From Thiotrichaceae bacterium (GTDB lineage: Bacteria > Pseudomonadota > Gammaproteobacteria > UBA5859): DNA of 64,000 bases. Made by a program: the position numbers and the translations under genes. Shown one piece after another: positions 15,009 through 30,123 of this stretch (the stretch's first letter is position 1; every line of letters starts with the position of its first letter). The notes under the pieces are model-generated. The model was not told the origin of the DNA and searched no databases. It was given only the letters and a program-made list of their open reading frames with translations. The stretch lies in contig JBGTSY010000001.1 of the NCBI GenBank assembly GCA_041940025.1, positions 19,186 to 83,185 of the forward strand, read 5' to 3'.

Positions 15009-15112
15009 CTGATTTTTTCTCCGGCATATTGCTTAGTAAACCTAACTATGAGTATGCTACCATTGTGTGAATGATGCAGGTAAATCAAAATTCCTTCTAA
15101 CAAATACTCAAG

Positions 15113-15355
15113 ATGCGATCCGCTATGAATAATTTAAAACTTGACACGGTATCGGATATAGAACACCTCGAAATACAGGTGGACGACTTACTGCGCTTCT
15201 GCAATCAGCTACAAGACGAGAATCGTTCTTTACGAGAAAAACAAAAGATACTTGTTAACGAACGCGCCACGCTGATTGAAAAAAACGAGCGGGCAAGATT
15301 AAAAATAGATGCCATGCTGACACGATTAAGATCCATGGAGCATGAACATGGCTAG
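15113..15355 (+). CDS. Small coiled-coil protein upstream of zapA (TIGR02449/ZapB-like)
   Basis: 80 aa, heptad-repeat rich. Same position as the small coiled-coil gene that precedes zapA in several gammaproteobacteria. Confidence 0.55.
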   Translation: MRSAMNNLKLDTVSDIEHLEIQVDDLLRFCNQLQDENRSLREKQKILVNERATLIEKNERARLKIDAMLTRLRSMEHEHG

Positions 15356-15659
15356 TAGTCCTGCTGTTGTTAATTTTAGAATACTGGGTAAAGACTATCG
15401 AGTTAGTTGCGCGCCTGACGAAGAGTCGGAATTGTTAAAATCGGCTCGTTATCTAGACGAACGCATGCGCGAAATTCGTGATACCGGCAAAATTGTCGGC
15501 ATGGATCGCATAGCCGTGATGGCCGCTCTGAATATTAGTCACGAATTCCTGCATCAGCACGATCAGCTTGGTGAACATGCAAATGTCTCTGAACGTATTC
15601 GTGCGCTGCAAAATAAAATTGACTTAGCATTAAATGGTGGGCGTCAACTAGAACTCTAG
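15342..15659 (+). CDS. zapA: Cell division protein ZapA
   Basis: 105 aa. NFRILGKDYRVSCAPDEE motif. Followed by 6S RNA and ygfA exactly as in E. coli and Pseudomonas. Start may be the internal Met at 15348. Confidence 0.85.
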   Translation: MNMASSPAVVNFRILGKDYRVSCAPDEESELLKSARYLDERMREIRDTGKIVGMDRIAVMAALNISHEFLHQHDQLGEHANVSERIRALQNKIDLALNGGRQLEL

Positions 15660-15664
15660 TCACA

Positions 15665-15862
15665 GGTTCAGAGGTGGTGCCTGCGGTGACCGTTTGCTGA
15701 CTGAGTACCCCTCGGGCCTTAAATTGTAATTAGGGGGCGGTCGTATGATGTTGTTGTGCAAGTCCGGAGTTGACCGGAAAGCCTGATACATCTGCCATGC
15801 TCCCACTTGAACCGATTGGTTCAGGGGCTATAGTTGGCGACGACATCTCGGGTACCATCGCC
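15665..15862 (+). ncRNA. ssrS: 6S RNA (SsrS), RNA polymerase-sigma70 regulator
   Basis: By eye, about 60 nt of the 3' half aligns with E. coli 6S RNA (CTTGAACCGATTGGTTCAGGGGCTATAGTTGGCGACGACATCTCGGGTACC vs CUUGAACCAAGGGUUCAAGGGUUACAGCCUGCGGCGGCAUCUCGGAG). The 5' segment GGTGGTGCC can pair with 3' GGTACCATC to form the closing stem. Lies in the canonical zapA-ssrS-ygfA slot. Ends are approximate. Confidence 0.75.
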
Positions 15863-15885
15863 ATTTTGTTTCTCTGTGTTGCATA

Positions 15886-16470
15886 ATGAATCAAGACTCC
15901 GTAGCGTCTTTGCGTCAACAGATGCGGCAATCACGTCGACAGCTCACTCGTGACGCGCAAGCTCATGCCGCCCTCTCCCTTCGTCAACACTTTCTAAATG
16001 AACATCGTCTGCTTAAAGCAAATAGGGTGGGGGCATATTTTCCTGCCGATGGAGAAATTAATCCAATTCCTCTATTAAATCGATTACAACAGTTAGGTAA
16101 ACAGATCTATTTGCCAAAGTTAGCCAGCTACCCAAAAAAAATGGTATTTCTACCCATGACTGGCGAATTCAAAGTGAATCAGTATGGGATTCTGGAGCCG
16201 GTTGCTGCCGCTCGGGAATTGAGATTTGCAACGGATCTCGATCTCATTCTGATGCCCTTAGTCGCTTTTGATGATCTTGGGAATCGTTTGGGCATGGGTG
16301 GCGGCTACTACGATCGAGCCTTGGCGAAATATCATCGATGTGGTTTTCTAAACCGTCCAAAATTAGTGGGATTGGCTCACTCGTTTCAACAAACGCAGCG
16401 CCTTAAATCTAATAACTGGGATGTACCCATGCATGGGGTGATTACCGAACGGTCCCTAAGTTGGTTTTAA
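15886..16470 (+). CDS. ygfA: 5-formyltetrahydrofolate cyclo-ligase
   Basis: 194 aa. YFPADGEINP and MPLVAFDDLGNRLGMGGGYYDR motifs. Co-located with 6S RNA. Confidence 0.85.
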   Translation: MNQDSVASLRQQMRQSRRQLTRDAQAHAALSLRQHFLNEHRLLKANRVGAYFPADGEINPIPLLNRLQQLGKQIYLPKLASYPKKMVFLPMTGEFKVNQYGILEPVAAARELRFATDLDLILMPLVAFDDLGNRLGMGGGYYDRALAKYHRCGFLNRPKLVGLAHSFQQTQRLKSNNWDVPMHGVITERSLSWF

Positions 16471-16819
16471 TCCATGGTCTGGCCAATGCTCGTCGACTAC
16501 CAAAGTTTTGACAGACGACTAGGCATAGAGAGCGACTAGATCAACAGCAGCAAACAGAATACTGTAGTGGTTTTCATCCAAATAATTTTTGTTCCCGCAA
16601 AATAAGTTAGCGGACAGATGTGCAAGCTGAGCCCGGTTAGTGAGTCATCCAAGTGAACTGGCCAGGCGGCTAAACACCCATGAGCGTCGTACTTGGGAAT
16701 GACTAAACATCCGACTAACTAACCTTTAATGAGATGTGATGCCTTAAAAAGAGTTCAATTCCGGTATAATGCAAGGTTCCGCCAGTTTTCTTGGCGGCTC
16801 GACACTCTGAGGATCTTGA

Positions 16820-17311
16820 TTGACAGATATGAATTATTGGCTATTTAAATCCGAACCCACCGAATTCAGTTTCGACGATCTGTTAAATATGCCCGATCAA
16901 ACTGAACATTGGGACGGCGTACGCAACTATCAGGCACGAAATTTTATGCGTGATGAAATGCGTGAAGGTGACTTAGCATTCTTTTACCACTCCAATTGTA
17001 AAGAGCCAGGAATCGTCGGCATTGTGGAAGTGGCCGCGGAAAGCTATCCCGACTTTACTGCTTTTGATGCCTCTGATCCTCATTTTGATCCGGATAGCGA
17101 TCCCGATAATCCCCGCTGGTTTATGGTAGATGTACGTTTTGTACGTCCATTGCGACGCACCATCACCCTAAAAGAATTAAAGCAGGTCAATGCGCTTAAA
17201 AATTTTCCCTTGGTGCGTAAAGGCAATCGTCTCTCTGTGATGCCGGTACAGGAAAAGGAATGGGAGACCATTCTCGACTTAGAAGAACGCCGTCAATCTC
17301 CACGAGTTTGA
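16820..17311 (+). CDS. EVE (PUA-like) domain protein
   Basis: 163 aa. NYWLFKSEP...WDGVRNY...GDLAFFYHSN...GIVGIVEV, the EVE-domain pattern. Confidence 0.8.
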   Translation: MTDMNYWLFKSEPTEFSFDDLLNMPDQTEHWDGVRNYQARNFMRDEMREGDLAFFYHSNCKEPGIVGIVEVAAESYPDFTAFDASDPHFDPDSDPDNPRWFMVDVRFVRPLRRTITLKELKQVNALKNFPLVRKGNRLSVMPVQEKEWETILDLEERRQSPRV

Positions 17312-17336
17312 ATTATCTGTATAGGCGAATGGTCTA

Positions 17337-17368
17337 GTGTCCTCAACTGGCTTGCCAGTTGAGGACAC
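17337..17368. terminator. Bidirectional intrinsic terminator hairpin between convergent EVE gene and ilvA
   Basis: Perfect 14-bp stem GTGTCCTCAACTGG-cttg-CCAGTTGAGGACAC, read directly. Confidence 0.7.
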
Positions 17369-17398
17369 AAGATTAATTCGAGGAGGATGATTTTGCCG

Positions 17399-18949
17399 CT
17401 ACTTTAAAAATAGTTGATAAGCAGGATTGCCTGTCTCTTCCCAATAGGGATAACCCACATCGTTCAAAGACTGACGAAATTGAGCACGCTCTGCCTGCGG
17501 CACTTGGATCCCCACCAAGACACGCCCAAATGCAGCACCATGGTTGCGATAATGAAACAGACTGATATTCCATCGTCGGCTAATTTTATTTAGAAAATTG
17601 AGCAGTGCACCAGGCCGCTCCGGAAACTCGAATCGATACAGCACTTCATTGTTGAGGCTGGGCGCGCGGCCACCAACCATGTGACTGACATGCAGCTTCG
17701 CCATCTCATTGTCAGACAAATCAGTCACTGCATATTCCATTTGTGCTAATCGATGCAACAAGTCTGTTTTTTCTGCCGCACCCTGCACTAACTTCACACC
17801 CACAAATACATGGGCTTCGGCATCATGAGAATAACGATAATTAAACTCCGTTACGGGTTTATTACCCACCGTTTTGCAAAACTCCTTAAAACTACCGGGA
17901 CGTTCGGGGATGGTGACCGCAAAAAAGAATTCTCGATGCTCGCCCAACTCTGCGGTTTCTGAAATATGCCGTAACCGATCGAAATTCATATTGGCGCCAC
18001 TATCGATTGCCACCAGACGTTGGTTATGGACTTGATTGCTTTCCACGTATCGTTTCAAACCCGCCAACGACAAGGCACCAGCAGGCTCGGCGATGGAACG
18101 TGTCTCATCAAATAGATCTTTAATGGCCGCACAAATTTCGTCCGCAGAAACAGTGATGACCTCATCCACATAATGTTTCAATACTGCGAAAGGCTCCTTG
18201 CCCACTTGGCGTACGGCCACACCATCTGCAAAGATACCGATATGCTTTAAACTCACCCGCCTTCCCGCATCTAATGCCGCCTTTAAACATGCCGCGTCCT
18301 CAGGCTCTACCCCAATGACCTTTATCTCCGGACGCAGGTATTTTACGTAAGCCGTAATGCCGGCAATCAAACCGCCGCCCCCTACCGGCACAAAGATGGC
18401 GTCCAGAGCGCCAGGATGCTGTTGTAAGATTTCCATCGCTATTGTGCCTTGACCGGCGATCACATCCGGATCGGCATAGGGATGAATAAAAGTGAGTTGC
18501 CGCTTCTCGGCCAATTGTATGGCGCAATCATAAGCATTGTCGTAACTATCACCGTGCAAATGTATATTGCCGCCCAAGCGTTGTACGGCTGCCACTTTAA
18601 TGTCTGGCGTGGTTTTCGGCATCACAATAGTGGCAGGAATCTTTAATGTTTGTGCGGCCAATGCCACCCCTTGCGCATGATTGCCAGCTGAAGCGGCAAT
18701 GATGCCGCCTTGTAATTGTTCCTCACTTAGCCCACTTATCTTGTTATAGGCCCCACGAAGTTTAAAGGAGAATACCGGTTGTAAATCTTCGCGCTTGATC
18801 CAAATGTCATTGCCTAATCGCTTAGACAGCAAGGGTGCTTCATCCAACGGCGTTCGCGATGCCACATCATAGACACGGGAAGTGAGTATTTTCTTCACAT
18901 AGCTGGCCAGCAATTTGGTATTCGGCTTCGATTTGGCTATTTTTTTCAT
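17399..18949 (-). CDS. ilvA: Biosynthetic threonine dehydratase (threonine ammonia-lyase) with tandem C-terminal regulatory domains
   Basis: 516 aa. PLP lysine motif SFKLRGA, glycine-rich loop GGGGL, and two ACT-like domains. Confidence 0.92.
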   Translation of the reverse strand: MKKIAKSKPNTKLLASYVKKILTSRVYDVASRTPLDEAPLLSKRLGNDIWIKREDLQPVFSFKLRGAYNKISGLSEEQLQGGIIAASAGNHAQGVALAAQTLKIPATIVMPKTTPDIKVAAVQRLGGNIHLHGDSYDNAYDCAIQLAEKRQLTFIHPYADPDVIAGQGTIAMEILQQHPGALDAIFVPVGGGGLIAGITAYVKYLRPEIKVIGVEPEDAACLKAALDAGRRVSLKHIGIFADGVAVRQVGKEPFAVLKHYVDEVITVSADEICAAIKDLFDETRSIAEPAGALSLAGLKRYVESNQVHNQRLVAIDSGANMNFDRLRHISETAELGEHREFFFAVTIPERPGSFKEFCKTVGNKPVTEFNYRYSHDAEAHVFVGVKLVQGAAEKTDLLHRLAQMEYAVTDLSDNEMAKLHVSHMVGGRAPSLNNEVLYRFEFPERPGALLNFLNKISRRWNISLFHYRNHGAAFGRVLVGIQVPQAERAQFRQSLNDVGYPYWEETGNPAYQLFLK

Positions 18950-19016
18950 AGTTGCTTGCCACCCGGATCTTAAGATTCCGTTATAATTGGCCTTTACTCA
19001 ATCGAGTGATTCTCTC

Positions 19017-19682
19017 ATGACACAGGATAGGTTAAAAAAACAGGCTGCCGAAGCAGCCGTTGCAGAGATCTCTAAAGATACCATTATCGGCGTGGGAACG
19101 GGAAGCACAGTGAATCATTTCATTGACGCCTTAGCCGCGCAACAGTTTCCCGTGAAGGCGGCCGTCGCCAGCTCCGAGGCGACAGCGAAACGCTTAACTC
19201 AAGCAGGGATCTCCTTACTTGATCTCAACGATATCGATGAGCTTGAGGTCTATGTTGATGGCGCAGACGAAGCCGACCCCAATCTCTGTTTAATAAAAGG
19301 CGGAGGCGGCGCACTGACGCGGGAAAAAATCATTGCCGCTGTGAGCAAACGATTTATTTGTATCGTCGACGAAAGCAAACTGGTGCCCACCTTAGGCCAG
19401 TTTCCTTTACCCATTGAGGTGATCCCGATGGCTCGGGAACAAGTCTGTCGTCAGTTGCGAAAATTAGGGGGCGATGCCAAATGGCGTAAGGATTTTATCA
19501 CCGATAATCAGAACCAGATTATCGATGTCCACAACCTTAAAGTAGAAGATCCCATCTCTTTAGAAACTGAGCTGAATCAAATCGTCGGCACGGTCACCAA
19601 TGGGCTGTTTGCGCAGCGCCGAGCAGATCAACTCATTGTGGCCAGCGCAAAGGGTATACAAAAAATCGCATCTGACGGTTAG
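19017..19682 (+). CDS. rpiA: Ribose-5-phosphate isomerase A
   Basis: Track ORF 18987..19682. Preferred start MTQDRLKK matches the E. coli RpiA N-terminus. GVGTGST, DGADE and [11 protein letters not shown] motifs. Confidence 0.9.
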
Positions 19683-19685
19683 CGA

Positions 19686-22082
19686 CTAACTGGCCTCCTC
19701 CAACAAGCGTTTCGCCTCTTCCATCCCTTTATACGGCGAGACATCTTTGGGCAGTGCCTTCTGTAATTCTGATTTGGCCATCTCTTTTTGTCCATTGGCT
19801 AAATAGGCCGCGCCCAAATGGTAGTGAAATACCGGATTATCTAACTCACCACGGCCCTGAAGATTTTCCAATAAGGAGATGGTCTTTTCCGGTTGGTTGA
19901 GGCGATAATATAACCAGGCGTAAGTATCGATAAAAAATGGGTTATTCGAGGATTGTAAGGATTCCGCCAGCTTGACTGCTTCTTCTAAGGAGGCTTTGTC
20001 TGTGGCGTGATCGGCTATGAGAGCGGCGAGGTTATTAATGGCTAAGAGATTATTTGCATCCTTATCCAGAACCTGTCGATAGATCGCCATTGACCCATCA
20101 TAATCTTGCATGGACTCTAACAATTGAGCTTTACCAATGAGCAACCTGGGTTGTTCCGGGAATTGTGTGAGTGCGTGATCAAAAGTAGCGAGAGCTTGCT
20201 TGGTCTTTCCTTGGGCTTTGTAAACTGAGATCAAATCCAGATAGGGAGGCAGATTTGTAGCATTGTCTTTTATCATGGCGTTAAACTGCGATTCCGCGCC
20301 AGCGTAATCCCCTTTGGCAAGCATCAGCCCACCCAATAAACCCTGGCTCACCGTGTCTGCGGGCACTTTCTTTAAACGTTGTTGAAGCAGCTTCTCTGCT
20401 TGCGCGTAGCGTTTATCGGCAATAGACACCTGTACGTATTCTGTCAGTGCATTGACGTGATTATTGTGCACATCCAATACCGCGAGATAATGTTTGGCGG
20501 CTGCAGGATAGTTGCCCATCGCTCGATACATTCTGGCTCGAGTAAAATCCACTAGCGCCCGATCTGGTGCATGTTGATCCAGTGCTTGCAGCGCCTCTTC
20601 GGCCTCTGTCCATTTTTGTTGTTTGACTAGTGCGTCGATATACATCACCCAAACCGATACATTAGCTGCATTTCGGGACAGCGTCTGACGCAAGAGTTGG
20701 GTAGCTGGCTCTAACATATCCGCAGATATCAGTTGGTGTGCTAATCCCAGTCGAATATTGTCTTCTTTTGGATTCAGTTGCAGCGCTTTGGATAGGGTTT
20801 CCTTGCGTAACTCTGGTTGCCGGTTAATGCCGTGAGCCTCTGCCAACAACAGCAGTGTGCGTACCGAATCAGGCGCTTGTTCCAGAGACGACCTTAAATC
20901 TGCAATCGCGGCATCGGTCTCGTTGCGTTTCAGTTTTAAGCCACCGAGCACCATTAATGCTTCGGCATTAGTGGGTTCCCGTTCAATCACATAGTTTAAC
21001 GCTTGCTCGGCTTCGGCCTCCCGACCACCCCGAACCTGATGCAAGGCGATTTGCACCCGCGCACGTAATGCATCCGGATTATCTTTGCCCACTTCTACTA
21101 TTTGATTGAGTACTGCAATCGCTTCGTTAGGGGAAGCGGCTAAAAATTGTGCCTTTGTGAAGAGTAGATCATAGCTTTCTGGTGATTTTTTAATCAGCTC
21201 ATCGAGTCGCTGCAAGGCTTCTTCAGGTGAGTCATGACGATAAAGAAACTGAACCAGATCAATTTGATAGCTTTGCTTGTCGGGGTGATTGTCCATGCGT
21301 TGCTGCAACCAATCGATGGCGACATCCTTTTTATCTCTGGCGATTAAATAGCGCACATAGGATTGTCCCAAGGCATGATTTTCCGGCTGCAATGCCAGTT
21401 GCTCGCGGTACTGATTCTCCGCTTCGTCATGCTGACCTGAGGTCACCAGCACTTGGAGTTTGAGAAAGATGAGTCCTTGGTTGGTCTTATCCTTGGCCAA
21501 TCCTTCATTGAGGTATTGCAATGCTTTATCAAACTGTTGTTGGCTGCCGTAGAGTGTCGCCAACACGGTAGCGGCGCTGGCGTTGCCCGGCTCCTGCTGC
21601 CAAGCGGCTAACCCGTCTTCTTCGGCACCAGCCACATTTCCCTGACGCAACTTTGTGGCGCTGCGTAAAGCCAGTGCTTCGGGATGATTGGCTTCTTTTG
21701 CTAATATGGCTTCTGCGATCTCACCAGCTTCATCCATCTTTCCTCTCAACAGGGCAAACTGTGCCTGTTTGATCTTGATGTCTATGCGTTCCGGGGCCAG
21801 CTCACCGGCTCGATTCAGTAGTGCATTCATCTCCTGCCAGTTCTGCTCCCGCTCGGCAATTTTTACGAGCAGGAAAAGAGCATCGACGTTTTGTGGTTGA
21901 ATTTGCAGACTATTTTTTGCATCCAACTGCGCTTTTTCCAGACGACCCGCTTCCAGATGGGCTTCTGCTTGTTCGATAAATTTCGCGGCTTTGGTTTCGG
22001 GACGATCGCAGGCGGATAATCCTAGAATCAATGCACCCGCCACCAATATACTTGAGAGTTGCTCTTTGAATTTAGTTTTCAT
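19686..22082 (-). CDS. TPR-repeat lipoprotein, PEP-CTERM system type (PrsT-like)
   Basis: 798 aa. Lipobox LGLSAC after the signal peptide, then >15 TPR-like repeats. Sits at the edge of a PEP-CTERM-type EPS locus where PrsT normally is. Confidence 0.7.
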   Translation of the reverse strand: MKTKFKEQLSSILVAGALILGLSACDRPETKAAKFIEQAEAHLEAGRLEKAQLDAKNSLQIQPQNVDALFLLVKIAEREQNWQEMNALLNRAGELAPERIDIKIKQAQFALLRGKMDEAGEIAEAILAKEANHPEALALRSATKLRQGNVAGAEEDGLAAWQQEPGNASAATVLATLYGSQQQFDKALQYLNEGLAKDKTNQGLIFLKLQVLVTSGQHDEAENQYREQLALQPENHALGQSYVRYLIARDKKDVAIDWLQQRMDNHPDKQSYQIDLVQFLYRHDSPEEALQRLDELIKKSPESYDLLFTKAQFLAASPNEAIAVLNQIVEVGKDNPDALRARVQIALHQVRGGREAEAEQALNYVIEREPTNAEALMVLGGLKLKRNETDAAIADLRSSLEQAPDSVRTLLLLAEAHGINRQPELRKETLSKALQLNPKEDNIRLGLAHQLISADMLEPATQLLRQTLSRNAANVSVWVMYIDALVKQQKWTEAEEALQALDQHAPDRALVDFTRARMYRAMGNYPAAAKHYLAVLDVHNNHVNALTEYVQVSIADKRYAQAEKLLQQRLKKVPADTVSQGLLGGLMLAKGDYAGAESQFNAMIKDNATNLPPYLDLISVYKAQGKTKQALATFDHALTQFPEQPRLLIGKAQLLESMQDYDGSMAIYRQVLDKDANNLLAINNLAALIADHATDKASLEEAVKLAESLQSSNNPFFIDTYAWLYYRLNQPEKTISLLENLQGRGELDNPVFHYHLGAAYLANGQKEMAKSELQKALPKDVSPYKGMEEAKRLLEEAS

Positions 22083-22687
22083 TTTTCCTTAATTTTCTAT
22101 CAGTTATGTAAAAAACAGGTGCCCAATACCACAATTTATTCTGGCTAAGCATACCACTTTTAAATGTGCACCAGGTATGTTTGACACTCTCTGTTTAGGT
22201 CTGTTCCAAATTTATCTACGTCAGCCTCTAGTACTTATGGGATTCTGACCAATAGACGTTCCCGATCCTAGCCATCGTAATACTCTCAGCGTTGTTTATC
22301 ACACGCCATAATTAATGCTCTTCGCTAACTTTAATGCTATTTTTGTAACAAATAATTAATGGGTATACTTTAATATCTCGTCTTCAGTAGAAAAAGTAAC
22401 GTCGAAATAATTTTTTTACTCACAAATGCAAATTTAAGTTTGACCACTGAAAATCTTATCATAAGAACGATATGTATGAATTAGAAAAGCAATATTTCCA
22501 ACTAGATCTACTCACGATCTTAGATAAACTTGATTGAGGTATCCTTAATAAGTGGTGTTGCTTCTGTACTGAAAATTCCACACCCGTCATAGATTAGCAA
22601 GTCAAAAAACAATACACTCCGCTGAAACATTTTTTCTCCTAGTAAAATAGGAATCGAGTACCCAATTAACTCTATGGCTTTCGTGAG

Positions 22688-23995
22688 ATGGTTCTAATTG
22701 AAAAATACGCTTCCGGCATGCGTGATCTTGCCGCCATGTTCCTGTCGAAAGGGGGTGCGATAGTCGTAGGACTGACTATGCAGTCATTACTCGCCTGGCA
22801 ACTGGGGCCAGCCACAAGAGGGCAATATGCTTTGTGTTTGGTTCTGATTTCAATTTTTTCCACATTATTACTTTTTGGCACCGACTGGAGTACTCGCCAC
22901 TACCTTGCAAAGTGGCAAGACTCCACTAATCGATTAATTACTTTCGCACTTGCATATTGCTGTGTTGCTTGTCTTGCAGCAATAGTGTTGATCCCATTCG
23001 TCTTCCAATTGGACCTAAAATTCTTTGCTCATTTACCATCTGACGTTGTATTACCTACGGTATTCTGGTGCTGTTCCAATATATTTTTCTTGATAAGTTT
23101 TGCAATTCTCGGGGGATTAAGCCAGTTTAGAGTTTTGGCGATTCTTAGTCTTGTAAAACCCACGCTAACGCTATCTCTAGCCACGCTCATGTTGTTTGGT
23201 ACACAGATCCCAGAACTGATTTCTCCCATCTTCGCAGACACCATTTCTGCTTTAACTGTTTCGTCAATAGTTTTAGTTCTGTTAGTACGTTCCATGGCAT
23301 ATCGATGGATGTTTCCAAATGTGCATCTAATCAAAACTCATCTAGATTATTGTCGAAGGTTTTTTCTCGGCTCCTTTGGCATGATCGTAAACGCTCACAT
23401 TAGCCTGATAGTTATAAGTATTTTTATAACAACAGAACAAATTGGATATTTTTCACTAGCATTTGCTTTCTTATCTCAATTAATTTCGATTACTGACGTT
23501 GTGAACAATGTCTTGCAACCTAGAGTCGCTTCCAGCATGGATGGTAGACCTAGACTCATCGCCTTATCCTCCAGAACAGTCAGTAGTGTGGCGATTGTAC
23601 TGGGTGCTTTAATTATCTGGACAGGCGAAAGCTGGATACCATTGCTCTTTTCAGAAAAATTCAATCCAACCTATTCACTGCTAGTATATTTATTACCTGG
23701 CATATGGTTAAGAATGGTAGGTAAAAGCTTATTTCCATATTTTAATGGAATTAATAAACCTGAAATCGTTTCAACTACCACCCTAATCAATCTAAGTGCG
23801 AATATAATATTCCTATTTATTTTGACACCAATATTCGAGCTTAAAGGTGCTGCTGTAGCCATCACTTTAAGTTATGCAATAAGCACCGGATACATAGTTT
23901 CAATCTACTGTAAACTCAATCCAGTATTGAAATGGTCGCTTGCTTTGATTAAACCGGCAGATATTAAGTCTTTATATGATAGTTTGCTAAAATGA
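22688..23995 (+). CDS. wzx: Polysaccharide biosynthesis flippase (Wzx, MOP superfamily)
   Basis: 435 aa. About 12 predicted TM helices. Low-GC codon usage. First gene of the glycan module. Confidence 0.8.
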   Translation: MVLIEKYASGMRDLAAMFLSKGGAIVVGLTMQSLLAWQLGPATRGQYALCLVLISIFSTLLLFGTDWSTRHYLAKWQDSTNRLITFALAYCCVACLAAIVLIPFVFQLDLKFFAHLPSDVVLPTVFWCCSNIFFLISFAILGGLSQFRVLAILSLVKPTLTLSLATLMLFGTQIPELISPIFADTISALTVSSIVLVLLVRSMAYRWMFPNVHLIKTHLDYCRRFFLGSFGMIVNAHISLIVISIFITTEQIGYFSLAFAFLSQLISITDVVNNVLQPRVASSMDGRPRLIALSSRTVSSVAIVLGALIIWTGESWIPLLFSEKFNPTYSLLVYLLPGIWLRMVGKSLFPYFNGINKPEIVSTTTLINLSANIIFLFILTPIFELKGAAVAITLSYAISTGYIVSIYCKLNPVLKWSLALIKPADIKSLYDSLLK

Positions 23996-24029
23996 CACTT
24001 TTATTTGAGCGTCACGAATACCCAAAAGG

Positions 24030-25076
24030 ATGTACGACAAGGTGACAAAATCAGAATTAAGTATTGCCATTCACAATGGGGAGGGTTGGAATTCAAGATG
24101 GAGGCAATATTGTATCGATCAGAATATCCCGTATAAAGTAGTTTGTTGTTATGATTCTGATATTCTTGATCAGATTCGAGATTGCTCAGGACTGATGTGG
24201 TTCTTTCATCATGCTCGTCCTCAGGACATTCTTATGGCCAGAAACGTTCTCAATGCCGCGGAATTAATGGGATTAAAGGTATTTCCGAATTTCCATACCA
24301 ACTGGCATTTTGACGACAAGCTTTCTCAGAAGTTTCTTTTTGAAGCATTAGATTTACCCGCCGCTCCGGCATGGGCTTTTTTTGATTTTGACAGAGCTAT
24401 GGAATTTGCTGATAGTTGCGAAATTCCTATTGTAGCAAAGCTTCGTCGTGGGGCAGGGTCTTATAATGTTCGCTTGTTAAAGTCTCGTGGGCAAGTGAGA
24501 AAATATATCAAGCGGATGTTTGGTGAGGGATATTCACCATCTCCACTACCTCTGGCTGATGCCAAGACAAAGTTTAAAGTCGCAATGAGGAAAGGCGGCC
24601 TTAAAGGTGTGCTAAATCGTTTGAAAAAGGCCCCGGAATTTTTTCGTGTTGTTACCAGAGGTAGGAAATATTTCGGCAATGAAAAAGGCTATGTCTATTT
24701 TCAGAAATTCATACCTGGAAATACCTGCGATTATAGAATAAAAGTAGTTGGTGACAGAGCATGGGGTTTTCGCAGGATGGTCCGAGAGAATGATTTTCGG
24801 GCGTCGGGTAGTGGCATTCTTGATTTTGACTATCGCAAGATACCTGCAAAAATGATACTAACAGCTTTTGAATCAGCCGATAAACTAAAAATGCAGAGTG
24901 TGGCTTTTGATTTTGTCATGGATAGAGAAGGAAAGCCGTTGATTGTTGAGATAAGTTATGGTTTTGATTTCGATGAAGGTGAATCGGATATCTGGTGGGA
25001 TAGAAGTCTTAAACAACATACAGAAACATTCGATCCAACGCATCTGATTCTCAAAACATTCTTACAGAATTTTTAA
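24030..25076 (+). CDS. ATP-grasp family enzyme (sugar-modifying ligase candidate)
   Basis: 348 aa. ATP-grasp landmarks IVAKLRRGAGSYNV, YVYFQKFIPG, DYRIKVVGDRAWG, ASGSG and LIVEISYGF, arranged like RimK/D-Ala-D-Ala ligase motifs. Confidence 0.7.
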   Translation: MYDKVTKSELSIAIHNGEGWNSRWRQYCIDQNIPYKVVCCYDSDILDQIRDCSGLMWFFHHARPQDILMARNVLNAAELMGLKVFPNFHTNWHFDDKLSQKFLFEALDLPAAPAWAFFDFDRAMEFADSCEIPIVAKLRRGAGSYNVRLLKSRGQVRKYIKRMFGEGYSPSPLPLADAKTKFKVAMRKGGLKGVLNRLKKAPEFFRVVTRGRKYFGNEKGYVYFQKFIPGNTCDYRIKVVGDRAWGFRRMVRENDFRASGSGILDFDYRKIPAKMILTAFESADKLKMQSVAFDFVMDREGKPLIVEISYGFDFDEGESDIWWDRSLKQHTETFDPTHLILKTFLQNF

Positions 25077-25431
25077 TAGTTTTTAGCAAATTCGAAAAAT
25101 TAAAAATAAGGGGTTTTGCATTTTTATAACTTAAACCTAAATTCAATTTCTCGTTGGAATTCGTTATGCAACTTATAAAAAACCTGAAATCTAAATCGTT
25201 TCTTCTCTAAACAGGATCCTTCGTAAACAGGTTCAGTTTTGGGATGGGATAATGAGCAGCTATACAGTGCAGAATCAGAAACTGAATCGTTCCAAGTAAT
25301 CATGGCGAATCCTACTTCTGATAATTTCAATCAAGTAAACCTAATAGCAGTTAACTGAAAATATCTAGTAGGAGTGTGAGTTTTAGAAATACTGTACCAG
25401 TCGATTAATCTAGAGGAAAGGGAATTGAAAA

Positions 25432-25647
25432 GTGAGTGAGAAATTTGATTTTGTAATTGATAATAGCAATAATTTCCAATTTGTTGAGATCAGTTATGGA
25501 TTTATGGGACAACCGATATATGATTGTCCCGGTTATTGGGATCAACAGCAAAACTGGCACCCAGGGCACTATTGGCCAGAACACTTTATAATTGAATCAA
25601 TTTTGAAAGTCGTGAGTAACGGGCGCGCCTCATTGTCCATTGATTGA
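25432..25647 (+). pseudogene. 71-aa ORF that is a diverged copy of the last ~50 residues of the upstream ATP-grasp protein (gene 3' remnant or small expressed peptide)
   Basis: KFDFVIDNSNNFQFVEISYGF...YWDQQQNW...HF aligns with AFDFVMDREGKPLIVEISYGFDFDEGESDIWWDRSLKQHTETFDP of the 24030..25076 protein. Has a GTG start preceded by AAGGGAA. Confidence 0.5.
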
Positions 25648-25783
25648 AATAAGCTATGGTTTTGCAATTGACGAAGGGGGATTCGATATGTATTGGATAC
25701 AAGACTGGAATAGACTTCACTCTTATTTTGATCCAAGAGACTTGAATCTTCAGGCTTTTGTGAAAACCTTAAACTTAAAATAG
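25646..25783 (+). pseudogene. Second degenerate copy of the ATP-grasp C-terminal segment, in a different frame and without an obvious start
   Basis: Manual translation gives IEISYGFAIDEGGFDMYWIQDWNRLHSYFDPRDLNLQAFVKTLNLK*, matching ...VEISYGFDFDEGESDIWWDRSLKQHTETFDPTHLILKTFLQNF. Confidence 0.45.
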
Positions 25784-25834
25784 CTAGTCGAGTTTTATGC
25801 GACTGCCATTACAACTATCTATGACCATCACAGC

Positions 25835-27241
25835 ATGAGTGGAAAATCCAGCATAACCAATTCAAGCCAAAGTGTCTGGTTATATGCTGGAGCATCTTTA
25901 TTGGGAATTACTCTCCTTGTTGCGACAAAGCAATACCTCGTTGCTTCAATACTCATTTACGCGTCAGTTATTTTATTTTCACTTAAGGACCCTGTATTAG
26001 GCGTAGTATTATCTATTGCATTTTTTACTTGTGATCAGCTCTTAATAGGGTTAGGCACAGGATATCTTGCACCAGGAAGATACTTAATATTTATAAATAT
26101 CATTTTTTGTGCAAAAGGCCTTCTCTCGAGCAAGTCCAGCAAATTCACAAGAGTCCACTTTGGCTTATATTTCTCACTGGCGGCACTAGGAGCAATGTCA
26201 CTTATCTGGGCGTCTGATGTAGATCGAGGTATATTATATTTATCTAAGCTTACAGTTCTAATTATATGGGCTCGTTTAGTTGTTCCTTATCTTTCAAACA
26301 GGAGGGCATTGGAAAATCTCTCTGCACTCATGCCGCTCGCCACTTGTGTCGTAGCTTTTAACTTAATCTTTGGCGGCGTTAGCGTAACAACTATGAGCCA
26401 TCATAGATTGATCCTAGAGGGTCTAGGGATAAATGCCGTAGCTATATCTTTTGGCTTCGTAATTATATTTTCAAGTGTTTATCTAAGTGGTAGTGCCCCA
26501 TTATGGAAAAAGTTAGTTATAGCGTTTTGCAATGTGGTTATTTATTATGCAGTGCTGAAAATGGGAACAAGATCCGTTGCTCTTGGGGTTCCACTGTCAT
26601 TATTCATTGGACTGTTATTCTTGGAAAGCAAAAAATTTCTAAAGGGAGCGGGAATCGTACTAATCTCGACAACAGTGTTAGCGATAACTCTTTATATTGC
26701 AATAAATAACAATTTGATAACCGGAAAACTAGCAGAAAGATTTACAGGGCTTACAGAAATAGACACCTACTCCGAAAATAGCCGATTTTCACTAATCTCT
26801 CATTCTCTTTCTTACGTCGCAAGAAACCCACATGGATCAGGCGTCGGGAATGAACATATGGTTTTCAAAAATTATGTTTATAAAGTGGATCTTTTTGAAA
26901 CACACAACACTTTAGTTTCTACAATGGTCCAATTCGGGGTAATTGGTTTCCTTATACAACTCATAGCCTTTGGTTATCTGGGCTACCACGCTATAACAAT
27001 AAAAAACAGCACCTATAAGTATGTCCTTCTCGCATGCCTTATTTATTTTTTTATACAAATAATGAAAGGATCGTCTTTACAAACAAGACTTTTTTGGATT
27101 CCAATGGCCGTGATATGTGGTATGTTGGAATTTCACATAGTAAACGCGATATTAAAACAACGTAGATTATCGCCTTTACTAAAACACTATAAACAAGTAA
27201 CAAAGCCAAAGAAGCTTATATCAACAAATCGTCTATCATAA
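25835..27241 (+). CDS. O-antigen ligase / Wzy-like polysaccharide polymerase family membrane protein
   Basis: 468 aa polytopic membrane protein. Wzy_C-type motif ...ETHNTLVSTMVQFGVIGFL (H-N-x-x-L...G-x-x-G). Confidence 0.7.
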   Translation: MSGKSSITNSSQSVWLYAGASLLGITLLVATKQYLVASILIYASVILFSLKDPVLGVVLSIAFFTCDQLLIGLGTGYLAPGRYLIFINIIFCAKGLLSSKSSKFTRVHFGLYFSLAALGAMSLIWASDVDRGILYLSKLTVLIIWARLVVPYLSNRRALENLSALMPLATCVVAFNLIFGGVSVTTMSHHRLILEGLGINAVAISFGFVIIFSSVYLSGSAPLWKKLVIAFCNVVIYYAVLKMGTRSVALGVPLSLFIGLLFLESKKFLKGAGIVLISTTVLAITLYIAINNNLITGKLAERFTGLTEIDTYSENSRFSLISHSLSYVARNPHGSGVGNEHMVFKNYVYKVDLFETHNTLVSTMVQFGVIGFLIQLIAFGYLGYHAITIKNSTYKYVLLACLIYFFIQIMKGSSLQTRLFWIPMAVICGMLEFHIVNAILKQRRLSPLLKHYKQVTKPKKLISTNRLS

Positions 27242-28116
27242 TGCATCGCCAGAAAATAATAGGATTGGCATTTATATTATTCCACTTCTCTGGTGCATTA
27301 GTCGCTGCAGAAATACCTATTAACCAGCGCGCAGAACACCTAAAAACAAACAAACCACGTGAATGCTATGTATGGTTCGAGACCAATAGTCCTAAATATT
27401 TAAATTTATATATAGATGAATTTTCCAGCTGGAATAAGATAGGGTTTCCCATTATATCCGCTCGAATGAGTAATGCTGAAAGGTTGACTCAAACAATATT
27501 AAATCACACCCCTTCTGTGATAACTGGTTTTAAAACTTCCGACGCATTCCAAAACCGCTCCTTTACGGACGAACGAGCATGGAAAGAGATTGCGAATCTA
27601 GCCCGAAAGCTATCAAAATTAACAGGGAATAATCCTGTTGTGCTGGAAAACGAAGGTGCAGTAAAAAAGCTTCTCGATCAAGGGGTAAAATCCATTAAAT
27701 ATAATAATCTTGTAGATTCTATATCTAAGCAAAACTGGCCAGAGGTTTGGTTTTGGTATGCTCCCCAGGGAACAAAAGAGCCGGTCCGCTCTATCGCATA
27801 TGACATCGCAAGAGCCGTGAAAGTGGGAATCCCAAACTCTCGCCTGATTGAGCCATCCTCCGCTGGCTACTCAAATTCTAGAAAAAAAGCATCATCAATA
27901 GACAACCTTCGCAGGACATATTTAATCGACTCAAATCCTATATCAATAGTCTATCTGGATGATAATCGGAAACATTTCTGGAGAGTAAGTAATGCAGGAA
28001 AAGCAGTTCAAAGCGCTGAAAGCCATACCGTAATAATTTACCCTGGTTTTAACGACCTTAAAAAAGCCCGAAAAGTTTTAGAATCGCCAGTTACAAGCCT
28101 GTGCAATAAGAACTGA
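27241..28116 (+). CDS. Secreted hypothetical protein in the glycan module
   Basis: 291 aa. N-terminal signal peptide (LAFILFHFSGALVAA). No motif I can assign. Low-GC codon usage like its neighbours. Confidence 0.6.
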   Translation: MHRQKIIGLAFILFHFSGALVAAEIPINQRAEHLKTNKPRECYVWFETNSPKYLNLYIDEFSSWNKIGFPIISARMSNAERLTQTILNHTPSVITGFKTSDAFQNRSFTDERAWKEIANLARKLSKLTGNNPVVLENEGAVKKLLDQGVKSIKYNNLVDSISKQNWPEVWFWYAPQGTKEPVRSIAYDIARAVKVGIPNSRLIEPSSAGYSNSRKKASSIDNLRRTYLIDSNPISIVYLDDNRKHFWRVSNAGKAVQSAESHTVIIYPGFNDLKKARKVLESPVTSLCNKN

Positions 28117-28152
28117 TTACATTAAAAGTCCATAAGCAACTGGATTGGTAAT

Positions 28153-28935
28153 TTATGATCGCCCGATAAGATCGTAATTCTTTAAGACGCCTTGGATAGC
28201 ATAATTAGTAAAATAATAGATGGATTTGAATAAAGATAAATGTTCAATTCGTCTATACACAATCCATTGGTACTGCGCAGCCTTAAGTTTATTGCGAGAT
28301 AACGAATTTCTACGTACCCGGTATGTAGCTAGAACATCCTCCAGACCATAAGCATATTCAACATTCTTTAAAAGTGATAACCAGATACAATAGTCTTGGC
28401 GTTTTCTAACGTCTGGCATATATACCTTCCCTCCACTTCTCTCGATATGATACATACCGGTTAAACAGGAAATGACGCAAGTTTTTAACATCCTATTGTA
28501 ACTGGTCTTTTCAGGAACAATGAATTCACCTAGATCCGCTGTTAGGTCTTCAGACAGACGGCGGTAAGAAGAATAGACGATCGCTGCATTATTTTCTGAC
28601 ATAAACTGAATCGACTTTTCAAGAAATGTTGAATCCCACAGGTCATCTGCATCTAAAAACGCTATCACATCCCCCGAAGCCAATTGAATTGATAAATTTC
28701 TAGCAGGCCCTGCTCCCGTGTTTGACTCTAATCGATTGACAATAATTCTCGGATCTTCTTTTGCGTATGACTGACAAATATCATAAGAACGATCAGTGGA
28801 ACAATCATCGGTGATCAGCATTTCCCAGTTTGTATGAGACTGATTTCGAACAGACTGCATCGTATCAGCTATATATTTTTCTGAATTAAAAACCGGAGTA
28901 ATAATCGAAACTTTTAACGTTGGTGTTGTAGACAT
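28153..28935 (-). CDS. Family 2 glycosyltransferase
   Basis: 260 aa. VSIITPVFN...TDDCSTD...LDADD (DxD) GT-A signature. Confidence 0.85.
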   Translation of the reverse strand: MSTTPTLKVSIITPVFNSEKYIADTMQSVRNQSHTNWEMLITDDCSTDRSYDICQSYAKEDPRIIVNRLESNTGAGPARNLSIQLASGDVIAFLDADDLWDSTFLEKSIQFMSENNAAIVYSSYRRLSEDLTADLGEFIVPEKTSYNRMLKTCVISCLTGMYHIERSGGKVYMPDVRKRQDYCIWLSLLKNVEYAYGLEDVLATYRVRRNSLSRNKLKAAQYQWIVYRRIEHLSLFKSIYYFTNYAIQGVLKNYDLIGRS

Positions 28936-28956
28936 TTAAAAAACCAACTACCTAAC

Positions 28957-30123
28957 CTAGTAACTCTTAATAACCAGATCTACAAACAAGTCAGTCGTTA
29001 AACCTTTTGCTCGTTGGAAACCATTCTTTATTATGTTTTTTCGTAATTCAGAGTCGTCAATCAATTTTAATATAGCCTCTGACATTGCTTCTGGATCTTT
29101 TGCCGGGACTAATAGTCCGTCATAGTAATTGGTTACGCTGGAGGGTATTCCACCAACATTAGTTGAAACCAACGGAAGACTATTTGCCCGCGCTTCAACT
29201 AAAACTCTGGGTGTTCCTTCAGAAAGAGTGGGCAACACAAAAATATCCGCATTCCTCATTAAATCCGGAGTATCCTGATATCTGACATGGCCAAGCCATG
29301 CAACCTTATCCTCTACTTCAAGTTTTTCAGTTAGACTGTCCAGCTTTTGTTGATATGCAGCGTACCTATCACGGCTCCCTGCCACTATAAGCTTGACCCT
29401 TTTTTTCTTCTTGCTCACTCTAGAAACAGCATCTATGAGGTATTCAATGCCTTTTTCCGGGCGCACAAAGCAAAGGGTTAAAATTCTGATCGTTTCATCT
29501 TGACATGTATCATCTCGCTCATATAAATCCTCAGCTGACAAAGTGGTAGAAACCGTAGTTATTGTTTTTGGTGACGAATATCGATTTGCGAGCTCCTGCC
29601 CATTGCAGATAAAGGATCCCGCAGCACGTTTACGGCCTCTAATCAGTTGTCGTTCCCAACCCCAAATATACAGCCTACCTAAATTATCCATTAAAAAATT
29701 GGATCGCTTATGTGACTTCAACAACTCCATAGAATTACCAACTAGCCAATGGCAAACAGGCTTTTGGTACTGTGTACATAATTTATACAGAGTGGATGTC
29801 TCTGCAACTGGATTACCGCGCACAAAGACAAAATCGGATTCTTGAACTACATTCTTGTAACTAGTTTTTATACCTCGAATATGTTTCACACTACCCATAG
29901 TAGTTAACCAATTGGGCTGAGGATATAAAGTTAAATTGTCAGGCAGTTTATAATCCTCCTGAGAAGAGGCCTCCGGGGCCAATGGAGAACTGAGGCAAAT
30001 ATGACTAAATCGTTCCGCAAAAGCTTCAACAATTTTCCCGAATGAAAAATGCGCGTAGAGTTTTCCTTCTCTATAACTGACCCGTCCACCAATAATGCCA
30101 AGCTTAGAGTTAATACGCATCAT
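28957..30123 (-). CDS. Family 1 (GT4-like) glycosyltransferase
   Basis: 388 aa. C-terminal GT-B motif FVLPTLSEGTPRVLVEARANSLPLVSTNVGGIP. Confidence 0.85.
   Translation of the reverse strand: MMRINSKLGIIGGRVSYREGKLYAHFSFGKIVEAFAERFSHICLSSPLAPEASSQEDYKLPDNLTLYPQPNWLTTMGSVKHIRGIKTSYKNVVQESDFVFVRGNPVAETSTLYKLCTQYQKPVCHWLVGNSMELLKSHKRSNFLMDNLGRLYIWGWERQLIRGRKRAAGSFICNGQELANRYSSPKTITTVSTTLSAEDLYERDDTCQDETIRILTLCFVRPEKGIEYLIDAVSRVSKKKKRVKLIVAGSRDRYAAYQQKLDSLTEKLEVEDKVAWLGHVRYQDTPDLMRNADIFVLPTLSEGTPRVLVEARANSLPLVSTNVGGIPSSVTNYYDGLLVPAKDPEAMSEAILKLIDDSELRKNIIKNGFQRAKGLTTDLFVDLVIKSY

Follow-up and report, generated by a model that had tools for sequence, protein, structure and literature searches.

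The 758-bp gap between an ATP-grasp ligase gene and a Wzy-like polymerase gene in this genome very probably consists of three stacked, non-functional gene remnants, which successive rounds of recombinational replacement left in the variable core of an XrtA/PEP-CTERM exopolysaccharide locus. The window, by which we mean the whole 64-kb stretch of DNA that was analysed, carries a Wzx-like gene, the ATP-grasp gene and the Wzy-like gene in that order, with glycosyltransferase genes beside Wzx and Wzy, and the same Wzx, ATP-grasp, Wzy order is present in the distant loci L004–L010; just 24–126 bp separate the ATP-grasp gene from Wzy in distant loci. The features of the region are as follows:

22688..23995, + strand, Wzx-like flippase gene (Pfam Polysacc_synt, E 1.2e-7; 97.9% amino acid identity to the relative L091), resident backbone
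24030..25076, + strand, intact chimeric ATP-grasp ligase gene of 348 aa, with codons 1–31 of B type (resident) and 32–348 of A type (imported)
24122..~25471, + strand, imported block of ~1350 bp, in place of ~790 bp of resident B-gene sequence (L091 ~2154–2943)
25166..25373, + strand, decayed 5′ remnant of ~70 codons, GH123_cat / PF13320-like, located by tblastn with the GH123-like protein of L004
25432..25647, + strand, 71-aa ORF with a GTG start lying over fragment 1, with FVEISYGF encoded from 25483 and an SD-like GGAAAGGG 9 nt upstream of the GTG
25435..25633, + strand, fragment 1, 3′ remnant of the displaced B-type allele, ~65 codons (25435–25471 divergent and B′-like, 25472–25633 resident B)
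25633..25634, + strand, point within the B stop codon at which the B allele meets the C-type stub
25634..25783, + strand, fragment 2, 3′ remnant of a third, C-type allele, ~48 codons, at the left edge of the Wzy-p291 module
25640..25783, + strand, 47-aa ORF with LIEISYGF at its start
25835..27241, + strand, Wzy-like polymerase gene, 468 aa, multi-pass membrane protein (94.7% amino acid identity to L091)

A tblastn search of the entire 64-kb window with the 348-aa ATP-grasp protein returns, besides the gene itself, matches at 25640–25765 (40% identity over 42 aa, residues 305–346, E 9.4e-6) and at 25435–25608 (34% identity over 58 aa, residues 290–346, E 1.5e-4), and no further match in the window, the next best having an E value of at least 1.7. 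An earlier note on this DNA had described two diverged copies of the enzyme's tail downstream of 24030..25076, and they are present where it placed them. Its description of them as protein-level homologues rather than nucleotide repeats, lying in shifted frames, also holds; nucleotide similarity between the live gene and the stubs is confined to stretches of 23 nt (91% and 83%) and 53 nt (74%), and the ATP-grasp, 71-aa and 47-aa ORFs occupy three different forward frames. The similarity on which that description depends is significant in the whole-window search, and it is far higher against other members of the family: fragment 1 matches residues 295–356 of the 357-aa homologue P0021 with 85% identity (E 1e-40), and fragment 2 matches the last 42–47 residues of family members, the best being P0028 (45% over the last 42, E 3e-10). 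Over 23149–28398 the window is matched at 100% identity by two independently assembled Logan contigs, L092 and L093, and the layout is therefore not an artefact of assembly.

The earlier note overlooked that the 355-bp "spacer" separating fragment 1 from the ATP-grasp gene contains a third remnant, which derives from the 5′ end of a GH123-like gene. Residues 2–25 of the L004 GH123-like protein correspond to 25168–25239 and residues 27–70 to 25242–25373 in a different frame, with E values of 1e-13 in a local search and 2.5e-11 against the entire window; the stub carries a frameshift and two in-frame stop codons. Searches for more ATP-grasp homology in 25077–25431 or on the minus strand gave only noise (E at least 0.008), no Rfam match to a structured RNA was found in 24900–25900 at E ≤ 1, and a promoter and terminator scan gave sites no more numerous than in shuffled sequence. 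Repeats that could mediate inversion or conversion, including flanking direct or inverted ones, are limited to short examples of chance size.

The relatives of this locus reveal what the region looks like without some or all of the remnants. The contig L091, which is 95–96% identical to the window in the flanks, has an intact 361-aa B gene ending in SLSID and a stop codon, followed by fragment 2 and then by the same Wzy, p291 and GT2 genes as in the window; the last 65 codons of this single B-type gene are fragment 1. L094 belongs to the same species as the window (98.5% identity over 10 kb of the left flank and 98.4% in the right flank), and its B gene is intact; a different block of 3.6 kb comes next, without fragment 2, and the entire Wzy module is missing. 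L001 and L012 match the window DNA at 95.5% to about 24183 and at 92.7% over 25444–25620; we note that the syntenic contig L012 is from Thiotrichaceae bacterium UBA5859. As would be expected of a scar, fragment 1 corresponds to the 3′ end of a B gene that stands intact at the same position in L091, L094, L012 and L001, and sequence identity changes abruptly at the edges of the remnants. The breakpoints lie at 24121/24122, ~25471/25472 and 25633/25634, the last being where homology to L094 and L012 ends.

The ATP-grasp gene is itself divided by the first of these breakpoints. Residues 1–31 are identical at 29 of 31 positions to P0021 (B type) and at only 13 of 31 to the A-like P0002, while residues 32–296 are 75–85% identical to P0002 and 55–62% identical to B; because the foreign block brings in A-type codons 32–348, the live gene is a B(1–31)::A(32–348) chimera. 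It keeps all 37 invariant columns of its family, and its AlphaFold model (mean pLDDT 87.4, pTM 0.84) has ArgX, LysX, RimK and Ddl as its best Foldseek matches in the PDB (E 2e-13 to 1e-11, probability 1.00, TM 0.6–0.75). The protein is thus predicted to adopt the three-domain ATP-grasp fold of the RimK/LysX-like ligase superfamily. No Pfam model matches it, and its match to NCBIfam rimK_fam, with an E value of 6e-9 and 35.6 bits, is below the cut-off of 143; since no curated model is passed, we regard it as a member of a divergent subfamily outside any named equivalog. A profile of the family finds RimK among PDB sequences at E 1.4e-5, and many homologues have a precomputed PF08443 match. Variability in the family is greatest over the C-terminal ~50 residues, where 23 of 52 are identical to the closest relative, against ~80% identity elsewhere.

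Near-identity to L091, L094, L012 and L001 stops at 24121 and restarts at 25472, with patches of ~70% identity between; L094, for example, has 11 differences from the window in the 2157 nt up to 24121 and ~30% divergence beyond. The block so delimited contains the A-type codons 32–348, a stop codon, ~90 bp of intergenic DNA and the decayed GH123-like 5′ stub. A search for its donor found none; the best protein was P0002 (74% identical), whose gene is followed by Wzy and by no GH123-like gene; the best A-type candidates were 63% identical in a scan of JGI metagenomes and 60% identical in a scan of species-representative genomes, a collection without the window's own species.

Fragment 1 has 91% amino acid identity with the 3′ end of the intact L091 gene, and its similarity to that gene is uneven. 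The window and L091 differ at 13 positions in 25437–25471 and at none of the 133 nt of 25472–25604; the binomial probability for this mismatch step near 25472 is 6e-11, as calculated from a hand count of 14 mismatches in 41 nt. There are four synonymous and two non-synonymous differences from L091 in fragment 1, which say nothing either way about selection on it because the L091 comparator stretch is part of a live gene. Fragment 2 is present in L091, downstream of the intact gene, and absent from L094, L012 and L001; it differs from its L091 counterpart by no synonymous and five non-synonymous changes and a 6-bp indel, small numbers that may reflect relaxed constraint, and for comparison the pN/pS values for wzx and wzy are 0.28–0.35. 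Neither fragment has an internal stop codon and both are still open reading frames. Only residues ~290–346 (fragment 1) and ~303–346 (fragment 2) of the live protein are represented, corresponding to the strands at 290–297 and 303–309 and the terminal helix at 336–346 of the model; the N-terminal, central (lid) and ATP-binding parts are missing from both, with no family homology upstream on either strand. Among 5.8 billion proteins no full-length source or close relative of fragment 2 was found.

In L094, L012 and L001 the B gene ends in TTA TGA, and its stop codon shares bases with the ATG that starts the following gene, whereas in the window and L091 it reads TCA T/TG TCC ATT GAT TGA, with the junction at the slash, so that the B frame gains four codons. 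We see no homology across the 25633/25634 join, which connects the B stop codon to C codon ~300. To its right lies the module with the Wzy-like gene, whose product is 26–30% identical to those of the genes directly after the ATP-grasp gene in L011, L014, L018 and L019; Pfam gives no match for the window's own Wzy-like protein, and Wzy_C is matched by the gene at the Wzy position in L004–L010. The Wzy-like gene probably arrived together with fragment 2, as its downstream partner. There is also evidence of the same cassette moving between lineages with flanks that are only 83–85% identical.

The homology blocks, the breakpoints, the chimerism and the intact genes of the relatives are direct observations, and from them we propose that the region was assembled in two steps; the order and direction of these steps, the recombination mechanism and the remnants' lack of function are inferred. 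In the older step, common to L091, the Wzy-p291 module would have been joined to the end of the resident B-type gene, inside its stop codon, bringing with it the last ~48 codons of the C-type gene that preceded it in the source locus, which became fragment 2. In the second step, confined to the lineage of the window, ~1350 bp of foreign DNA would have overwritten B codons ~32–294, importing A-type codons 32–348 with their stop codon, the ~90 bp of intergenic DNA, the GH123-like 5′ stub in an already decayed state, and apparently a short B′-like piece. Entry would have been by homologous crossovers at both sides, the right one at ~25472, and would have left the resident B 3′ end stranded as fragment 1, 3′ of a complete chimeric gene. 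That the B′-like piece came along suggests that a composite scar already existed in a donor. We note for fragment 2 that a deletion from a B–C tandem would produce L091 and L094 states identical to those left by truncation during import of the Wzy module.

The earlier note had offered as one explanation that the copies are stubs of paralogs deleted from a former tandem array of ligases, and a part of this stands, both fragments being 5′-truncated 3′ ends of the same family. In the full form of this alternative, two or three full-length ATP-grasp genes (A, B, C) stood side by side at this locus, each with its own way of decorating the polysaccharide, and internal deletions cut away the 5′ parts of B and C. 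Such arrays of the family do occur in other metagenomic loci, with at least three full-length copies in L113/L114 and two each in L098 and L116, and in L057, a Marinobacter MAG, a full ATP-grasp gene is followed by a 5′-truncated copy that is 53% identical, and then by a polymerase; the observed join would also result, for fragment 2 taken by itself, if a deletion had run from the B stop codon to C codon ~300. For fragment 1, however, the comparison of related genomes that the note had called for went against a tandem: L091 and L094 each have one intact gene at this position, a resident allele whose 3′ end survives in the window as fragment 1. The live gene moreover joins a B-type 5′ end (29/31, its DNA matching L094 to 24121) to an A-type body, and because the B 5′ end is fused to the A body, A was never complete here and the middle of B was lost to insertion rather than simple deletion. 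The block to the right of B is wholly different in L091 and L094, a pattern of cassette replacement, and we consider a local array improbable. A variant of the replacement account, in which the ATP-grasp gene, as the sole conserved gene between divergent wzx and wzy, is the preferred recombination anchor for exchange of the polymerase module, and its hypervariable tail travels with the downstream polymerase by Rhs-like displacement, might apply, with an equally low probability. We note that the stub starts are no more than 13 codons apart, that L057 has a like layout and that the tail is the least conserved part, which is compatible with an anchor but, coming from two lineages, is not evidence for one.

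Two readings would give the stubs a function. Efficient RecA-dependent exchange requires roughly 20–30 nt of identity, and this bears on the suggestion that they are silent 3′ cassettes, donors in gene conversion of the C-terminal tail that would vary the glycan in the style of pilS/pilE, vls or orphan Rhs/CDI systems. The tail is indeed where the family varies most, a stretch coding for EISYGF is common to all three copies, and the layout resembles the strings of displaced 3′ ends at Rhs/T6SS loci (PMC5361080). But the longest exact matches between the live gene and the stubs are 11 and 10 nt, the 3′ side has no conserved block, there are no flanking repeats beyond chance size, the same junctions recur in the two further assemblies (L092 and L093) with no alternative ones in the assemblies examined, the changes in fragment 2 relative to L091 are exclusively non-synonymous plus an indel, and just one comparable stub occurs among 133 other loci of the ATP-grasp family. 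This suggestion of the earlier note is not borne out, and we find it hardly credible. The other reading has the 71-aa ORF (25432–25647) translated, and acting on the enzyme or its partners, for instance as a mimic of an oligomer interface. It offers 71 open codons behind the SD-like element and GTG, was predicted as a protein (P0132) by one gene caller, in one Logan assembly only, and is probably transcribed with the operon, since the terminator scan found no + strand terminator-like site from the ATP-grasp gene to Wzy. Against this, its start codon and SD-like GGAAAGGG sit in junction and imported sequence and were created by the junction, in the window lineage only; the peptide would comprise just the last two β-strands and tail of the fold (model residues ~290–348); Pfam and NCBIfam give no matches for it; and it forms no family of its own, P0132 clustering at 90% identity with full-length B-type enzymes. 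A function for this peptide seems very unlikely, and the ORF is probably a junction by-product and not a gene.

Scars of this kind have precedents. Gene remnants mark recent recombination in the O-antigen loci of Salmonella and E. coli, examples being the pieces of wzy that lie between wbaV and wbaU in groups B1 and D1 of Salmonella and the anomalies termed "gene remnant" in the corresponding clusters of E. coli (PMC3715488, PMC7685785). As in those O-antigen and capsule loci, truncated pieces of polysaccharide genes lie between intact genes in a low-GC recombinogenic cluster, with an intact gene in related strains; unlike them, the present locus has two stubs of one family behind a live chimera, with a further stub from a gene outside that family, is part of an uncultured gammaproteobacterium's XrtA/PEP-CTERM exopolysaccharide cluster, and has no IS or H-repeat at the junctions. 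At T6SS effector and Rhs loci serial displacement leaves 3′ ends behind (PMC5361080): the conserved 5′ part of a gene is where recombination with incoming DNA takes place, the old 3′ end is pushed downstream, and repetition gives an age-ordered string, as with Rhs and CDI genes. The order here is of the same type, with the younger remnant nearest the gene: the live gene, then fragment 1 (window lineage only), then fragment 2 (also in L091). The displaced pieces here are however tails of a biosynthetic ligase, with no toxin or immunity gene and no selective reason for retention, and are almost without conserved core sequence for re-activation; toxin/immunity pairing is absent, in that the ORFs between the fragments have no Pfam or NCBIfam matches and the neighbours are Wzx, Wzy and glycosyltransferases.

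With respect to mechanism, at least one join, that at 25633/25634, is without homology across it and so has the signature of homology-facilitated illegitimate recombination (HFIR) in transformable bacteria (PMC3240628, and the references within PMC5361080), but the right end of the younger event resembles a homologous crossover within a pre-existing B′-like stub. Because this end looks homologous, the window lineage may have obtained a ready-made scar; double homologous exchange of a pre-formed scar, or HFIR, could account for the events. The promoter-less partial copies of a variable region near an expressed copy also recall pilE/pilS and vlsE. Those systems rely on long conserved flanking tracts, on a large number of cassettes and on mosaic products that can be demonstrated. 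The present locus has none of the three, and of conserved tracts on both sides of the variable segment we find only the short exact matches on one side and nothing 3′.

As the product of successive replacements, the odd layout is explained as ordinary pseudogene debris, a known kind of scar that calls for no new mechanism. We recommend that neither the 71-aa nor the 47-aa ORF be annotated as a gene, and that the annotation of the live enzyme record that it is a B::A chimera. The region illustrates cleanly, and in a datable way, the module-by-module rebuilding of an exopolysaccharide locus in its variable core, with three successive states, those of L094, L091 and the window, kept in near-identical genomes, and it may be of use for typing such loci or reconstructing their evolution.

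The ATP-grasp gene at 24030-25076 lies in a low-GC island (GC 0.35-0.41 at about 22-30 kb of the window, compared with 0.44-0.54 elsewhere) within an XrtA/PEP-CTERM exopolysaccharide locus. Members of this locus also include GT2 and GT4 glycosyltransferases and a PEP-CTERM-associated ATPase; the features that concern us here are:

19686-22082, minus strand, PrsT
22688-23995, Wzx-like flippase
24030-25076, forward strand, ATP-grasp gene, an intact 348-aa ORF
25835-27241, Wzy-position protein, 468 aa, multi-pass membrane
27241-28116, p291, a 291-aa protein of unknown function

Distant metagenomic loci keep the order Wzx, ATP-grasp, Wzy, with 24-126 bp before Wzy, compared to 758 bp between the ATP-grasp and Wzy-like genes in the window; this gap has no terminator-like site on the + strand, and an RNA family search of the region gave no match. 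Wzy_C proteins occupy the Wzy position in related loci, and the window protein has no match to Pfam Wzy_C. The p291 start codon overlaps the stop of the Wzy-position gene; a search with p291 matched no family, and its counterpart in L012, a related locus of Thiotrichaceae bacterium UBA5859, is 35% identical.

The gap holds a 71-aa ORF with a GTG start (25432-25647) and a 47-aa ORF (25640-25783), which together with the live ORF occupy three different forward frames. In a tblastn search of the whole window, the 348-aa protein matches 25640-25765 (40% over 42 aa, E 9.4e-6) and 25435-25608 (34% over 58 aa, E 1.5e-4), with no further significant place (next best E at least 1.7); both matches cover the far C-terminus, from residues ~290 and ~305 up to ~346. 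The two diverged, frame-shifted tail copies of the earlier note are thus borne out, as is their description as protein-level homologues and not nucleotide repeats: nucleotide similarity to the live gene is limited to 23 nt at the EISYGF codons (91%/83%) and a 53-nt stretch (74%), and exact matches run to at most 11 and 10 nt. We consider it very likely that these copies, fragment 1 (25435-25633) and fragment 2 (25634-25783), are scars of serial cassette replacement.

The live gene belongs to a large family scattered across the phylogeny (4079 protein-search matches, and 256 confirmed loci in a scan of species-representative genomes). Its predicted structure (pLDDT 87) has the ATP-grasp fold seen in ArgX, LysX, RimK, and Ddl, with a weak sequence-level match to RimK. 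Residues 1-31 are identical at 29 of 31 positions to P0021, a 357-aa B-type relative with 56% overall identity to the window enzyme, but at only 13 of 31 to A-like relatives, whose leader is shorter. Over residues 32-296 identity is 75-85% to the A-like P0002 against 55-62% to B, and the live gene is therefore a B(1-31)::A(32-348) chimera; it keeps every invariant family residue. The public protein P0001 begins at GTG 24042 (344 aa), while ATG 24030 gives 348 aa; the B-type proteins P0021 and P0134 use the start equivalent to ATG 24030, with the first 20 residues identical, and the P0001 annotation probably misses four codons at its start. E-x-N is found in many ATP-grasp enzymes at the metal-binding position corresponding to the last core strand motif, which here is E-I-S (E307-I-S309, 24948-24956); E307 and S309 are invariant in 25 diverse members, and the motif may be peculiar to this family.

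Fragment 1 shares 85% identity with P0021 residues 295-356; P0021 is encoded on L001-L003, contigs from beach-sand metagenomes. These match the window DNA at 95.5% from within wzx to about 24183 and at 92.7% over 25444-25620, with patchy similarity of about 70% between. An exact-sequence look-up places the 71-aa ORF in a 90% cluster together with four full-length enzymes, two of them on informative contigs. L091 (Logan SRR26541420, 8.3 kb) shares 95-96% identity with the window from 21969 to about 24121 and again over 25444-28917, and has one intact B-type gene of 361 aa, the 3' end of which is fragment 1; this is followed by fragment 2 and then by the same Wzy (94.7% aa), p291 (98.6% aa), and GT2. 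L094 (Logan ERR4801157, a 223-kb contig) is of the same species as the window (flank identity 98.5% across 10.3 kb on the left and 98.4% across 3.9 kb on the right) and also has one intact B-type gene.

The A-type import is the younger event, with breakpoints as follows. On the left, only 11 of 2157 positions differ between the window and L094 up to 24121, with dense differences from 24122; on the right, ATP-grasp homology returns at about 25435, and comparison with L091 gives 13 mismatches in 25437-25471 followed by none in 25472-25604 (binomial P 6e-11, computed on a hand count of 14 mismatches in 41 nt). The mismatches in 25437-25471 recur in alignment against L012 and L001. We read the 37-nt piece as part of a B'-like allele that differs slightly, joined at about 25472 by a homologous crossover; on this reading a composite of A-type gene, GH123 stub, and B' stub would have been pre-formed in a donor and have entered this strain by ordinary double homologous exchange. 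Alternatively, the piece could reflect error-prone repair at an illegitimate junction.

The 25077-25434 spacer contains a third remnant, a 5' stub (25166-25373) resembling GH123_cat/PF13320. The N-terminal 70 residues of the product of gene 7335-8945 in L004, a related locus, align to 25168-25239 and then, in another frame, to 25242-25373 (E 1e-13 locally, 2.5e-11 against the whole window), with two in-frame stops and a frameshift. GH123-like genes are regular cluster members in L004 and two other related loci (L006, L009), and there is no intact one within the whole window. Because about 210 bp of this stub are so decayed, beside perfect identity to L091 over 25472-25604, the scar appears to be older than its arrival in the present backbone.

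Fragment 2 reflects a separate join, shared with L091 and probably older. Homology of both to the B-type loci L094, L012, and L001 ends at 25633, within the stop codon: B-type loci have TTA TGA, with ATGA doubling as the start of the next gene, while the window and L091 have TCA T/TG TCC ATT GAT TGA (slash at the end of homology), which lengthens the B frame by four codons and leads directly into (C)PLIEISYGF. Rightward of the join L091 has fragment 2, Wzy, and p291 (2.6 kb), whereas L094 has a 3.6-kb block that is unrelated and contains a methyltransferase as well as ORFs of 154, 113, and 319 aa; homology returns in GT2. Fragment 2 thus forms the left border of a Wzy module that can be exchanged. 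It is the tail of a C-type ATP-grasp gene that stood ahead of this Wzy in the source, a gene either truncated on import or cut down by deletion in a transient B-C tandem. A search of the protein collection gave no close relative of fragment 2, and its best family matches are 45% identical. Between the window and L091 it shows five substitutions, all non-synonymous, and a 6-bp indel, compared to pN/pS of 0.28-0.35 for wzx and wzy; this fits neutral drift, although on small numbers. In L094 (11052-12412) the 154-aa ORF overlaps the B-type stop (ATGA) and the 113-aa ORF lies 550 bp further on; the product of the latter matches Pfam Wzy_C at the end of the model (E 4e-4), and the two ORFs could be parts of a single polymerase gene that was disrupted.

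Identity also changes abruptly or by stretches elsewhere in these loci. The central exopolysaccharide block is 95-97% identical between L012 (9249-17868) and L094 (9237-17372), but the flanks (window 14020-23299) are only 83-85% identical, which points to a recent transfer of the entire variable cassette from one diverged lineage to another. Window 28918-30080 is a second block that was replaced: L091 and L094 carry a hexapeptide-repeat acetyltransferase and a different GT4 there, and the window has a GT4 alone (28957-30123, minus strand, with patchy 67-73% identity to theirs); identity is back to about 98% at 30080, within the 5' end of the GT4 gene, and no stub is left at this block. Over 25535-28917 the window differs from L091 by about 6 per 100 nt up to about 26700 and hardly at all over 26700-28500, with divergence climbing again toward 28917, a pattern that suggests further crossovers inside the Wzy-like gene and GT2.

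The earlier note offered stubs of deleted paralogs from a tandem array, silent 3' cassettes, or an expressed tail peptide. That the copies are stubs of former ATP-grasp genes stands, but for fragment 1, decay of a local array is contradicted by the live gene's chimeric 5' end and by the single intact gene in each of L091 and L094. It may hold for fragment 2, and the family does form arrays elsewhere: L113 (36-3266) and L114 have three or more full-length copies, with about 40% identity to the same references, and L098 and L116 have two. Silent cassettes are argued against by the want of usable homology tracts with the live gene, by three assemblies without heterogeneity, by apparently relaxed constraint on fragment 2, and by the rarity of the pattern, found among 133 loci with downstream sequence only in the window lineage and one Marinobacter MAG (L057, 10001-11518), where a full gene precedes a 5'-truncated copy (53% identical, last ~135 residues) just upstream of an EpsG-type polymerase. 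The 71-aa ORF is probably not an expressed peptide: the junction gave rise to its start codon, it corresponds to just two strands and one helix of the enzyme's three-domain fold, and its homologues are full-length enzymes only.

Remnants of genes within O-antigen clusters count as a textbook mark of recent rearrangement, as with wzy in Salmonella groups B1 and D1 (PMC3715488), and are counted among the 'anomalies' of E. coli clusters (PMC7685785). T6SS effector modules and Rhs genes are reported to undergo sequential displacement, with homology-facilitated illegitimate recombination proposed (PMC5361080), a process itself described in PMC3240628. The window likewise stacks displaced 3' ends behind a complete gene, but it has no toxin or immunity genes and is therefore not a member of those systems. 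It adds a new case to a kind of scar already known, and its main point of note is that three successive states persist in near-identical genomes.
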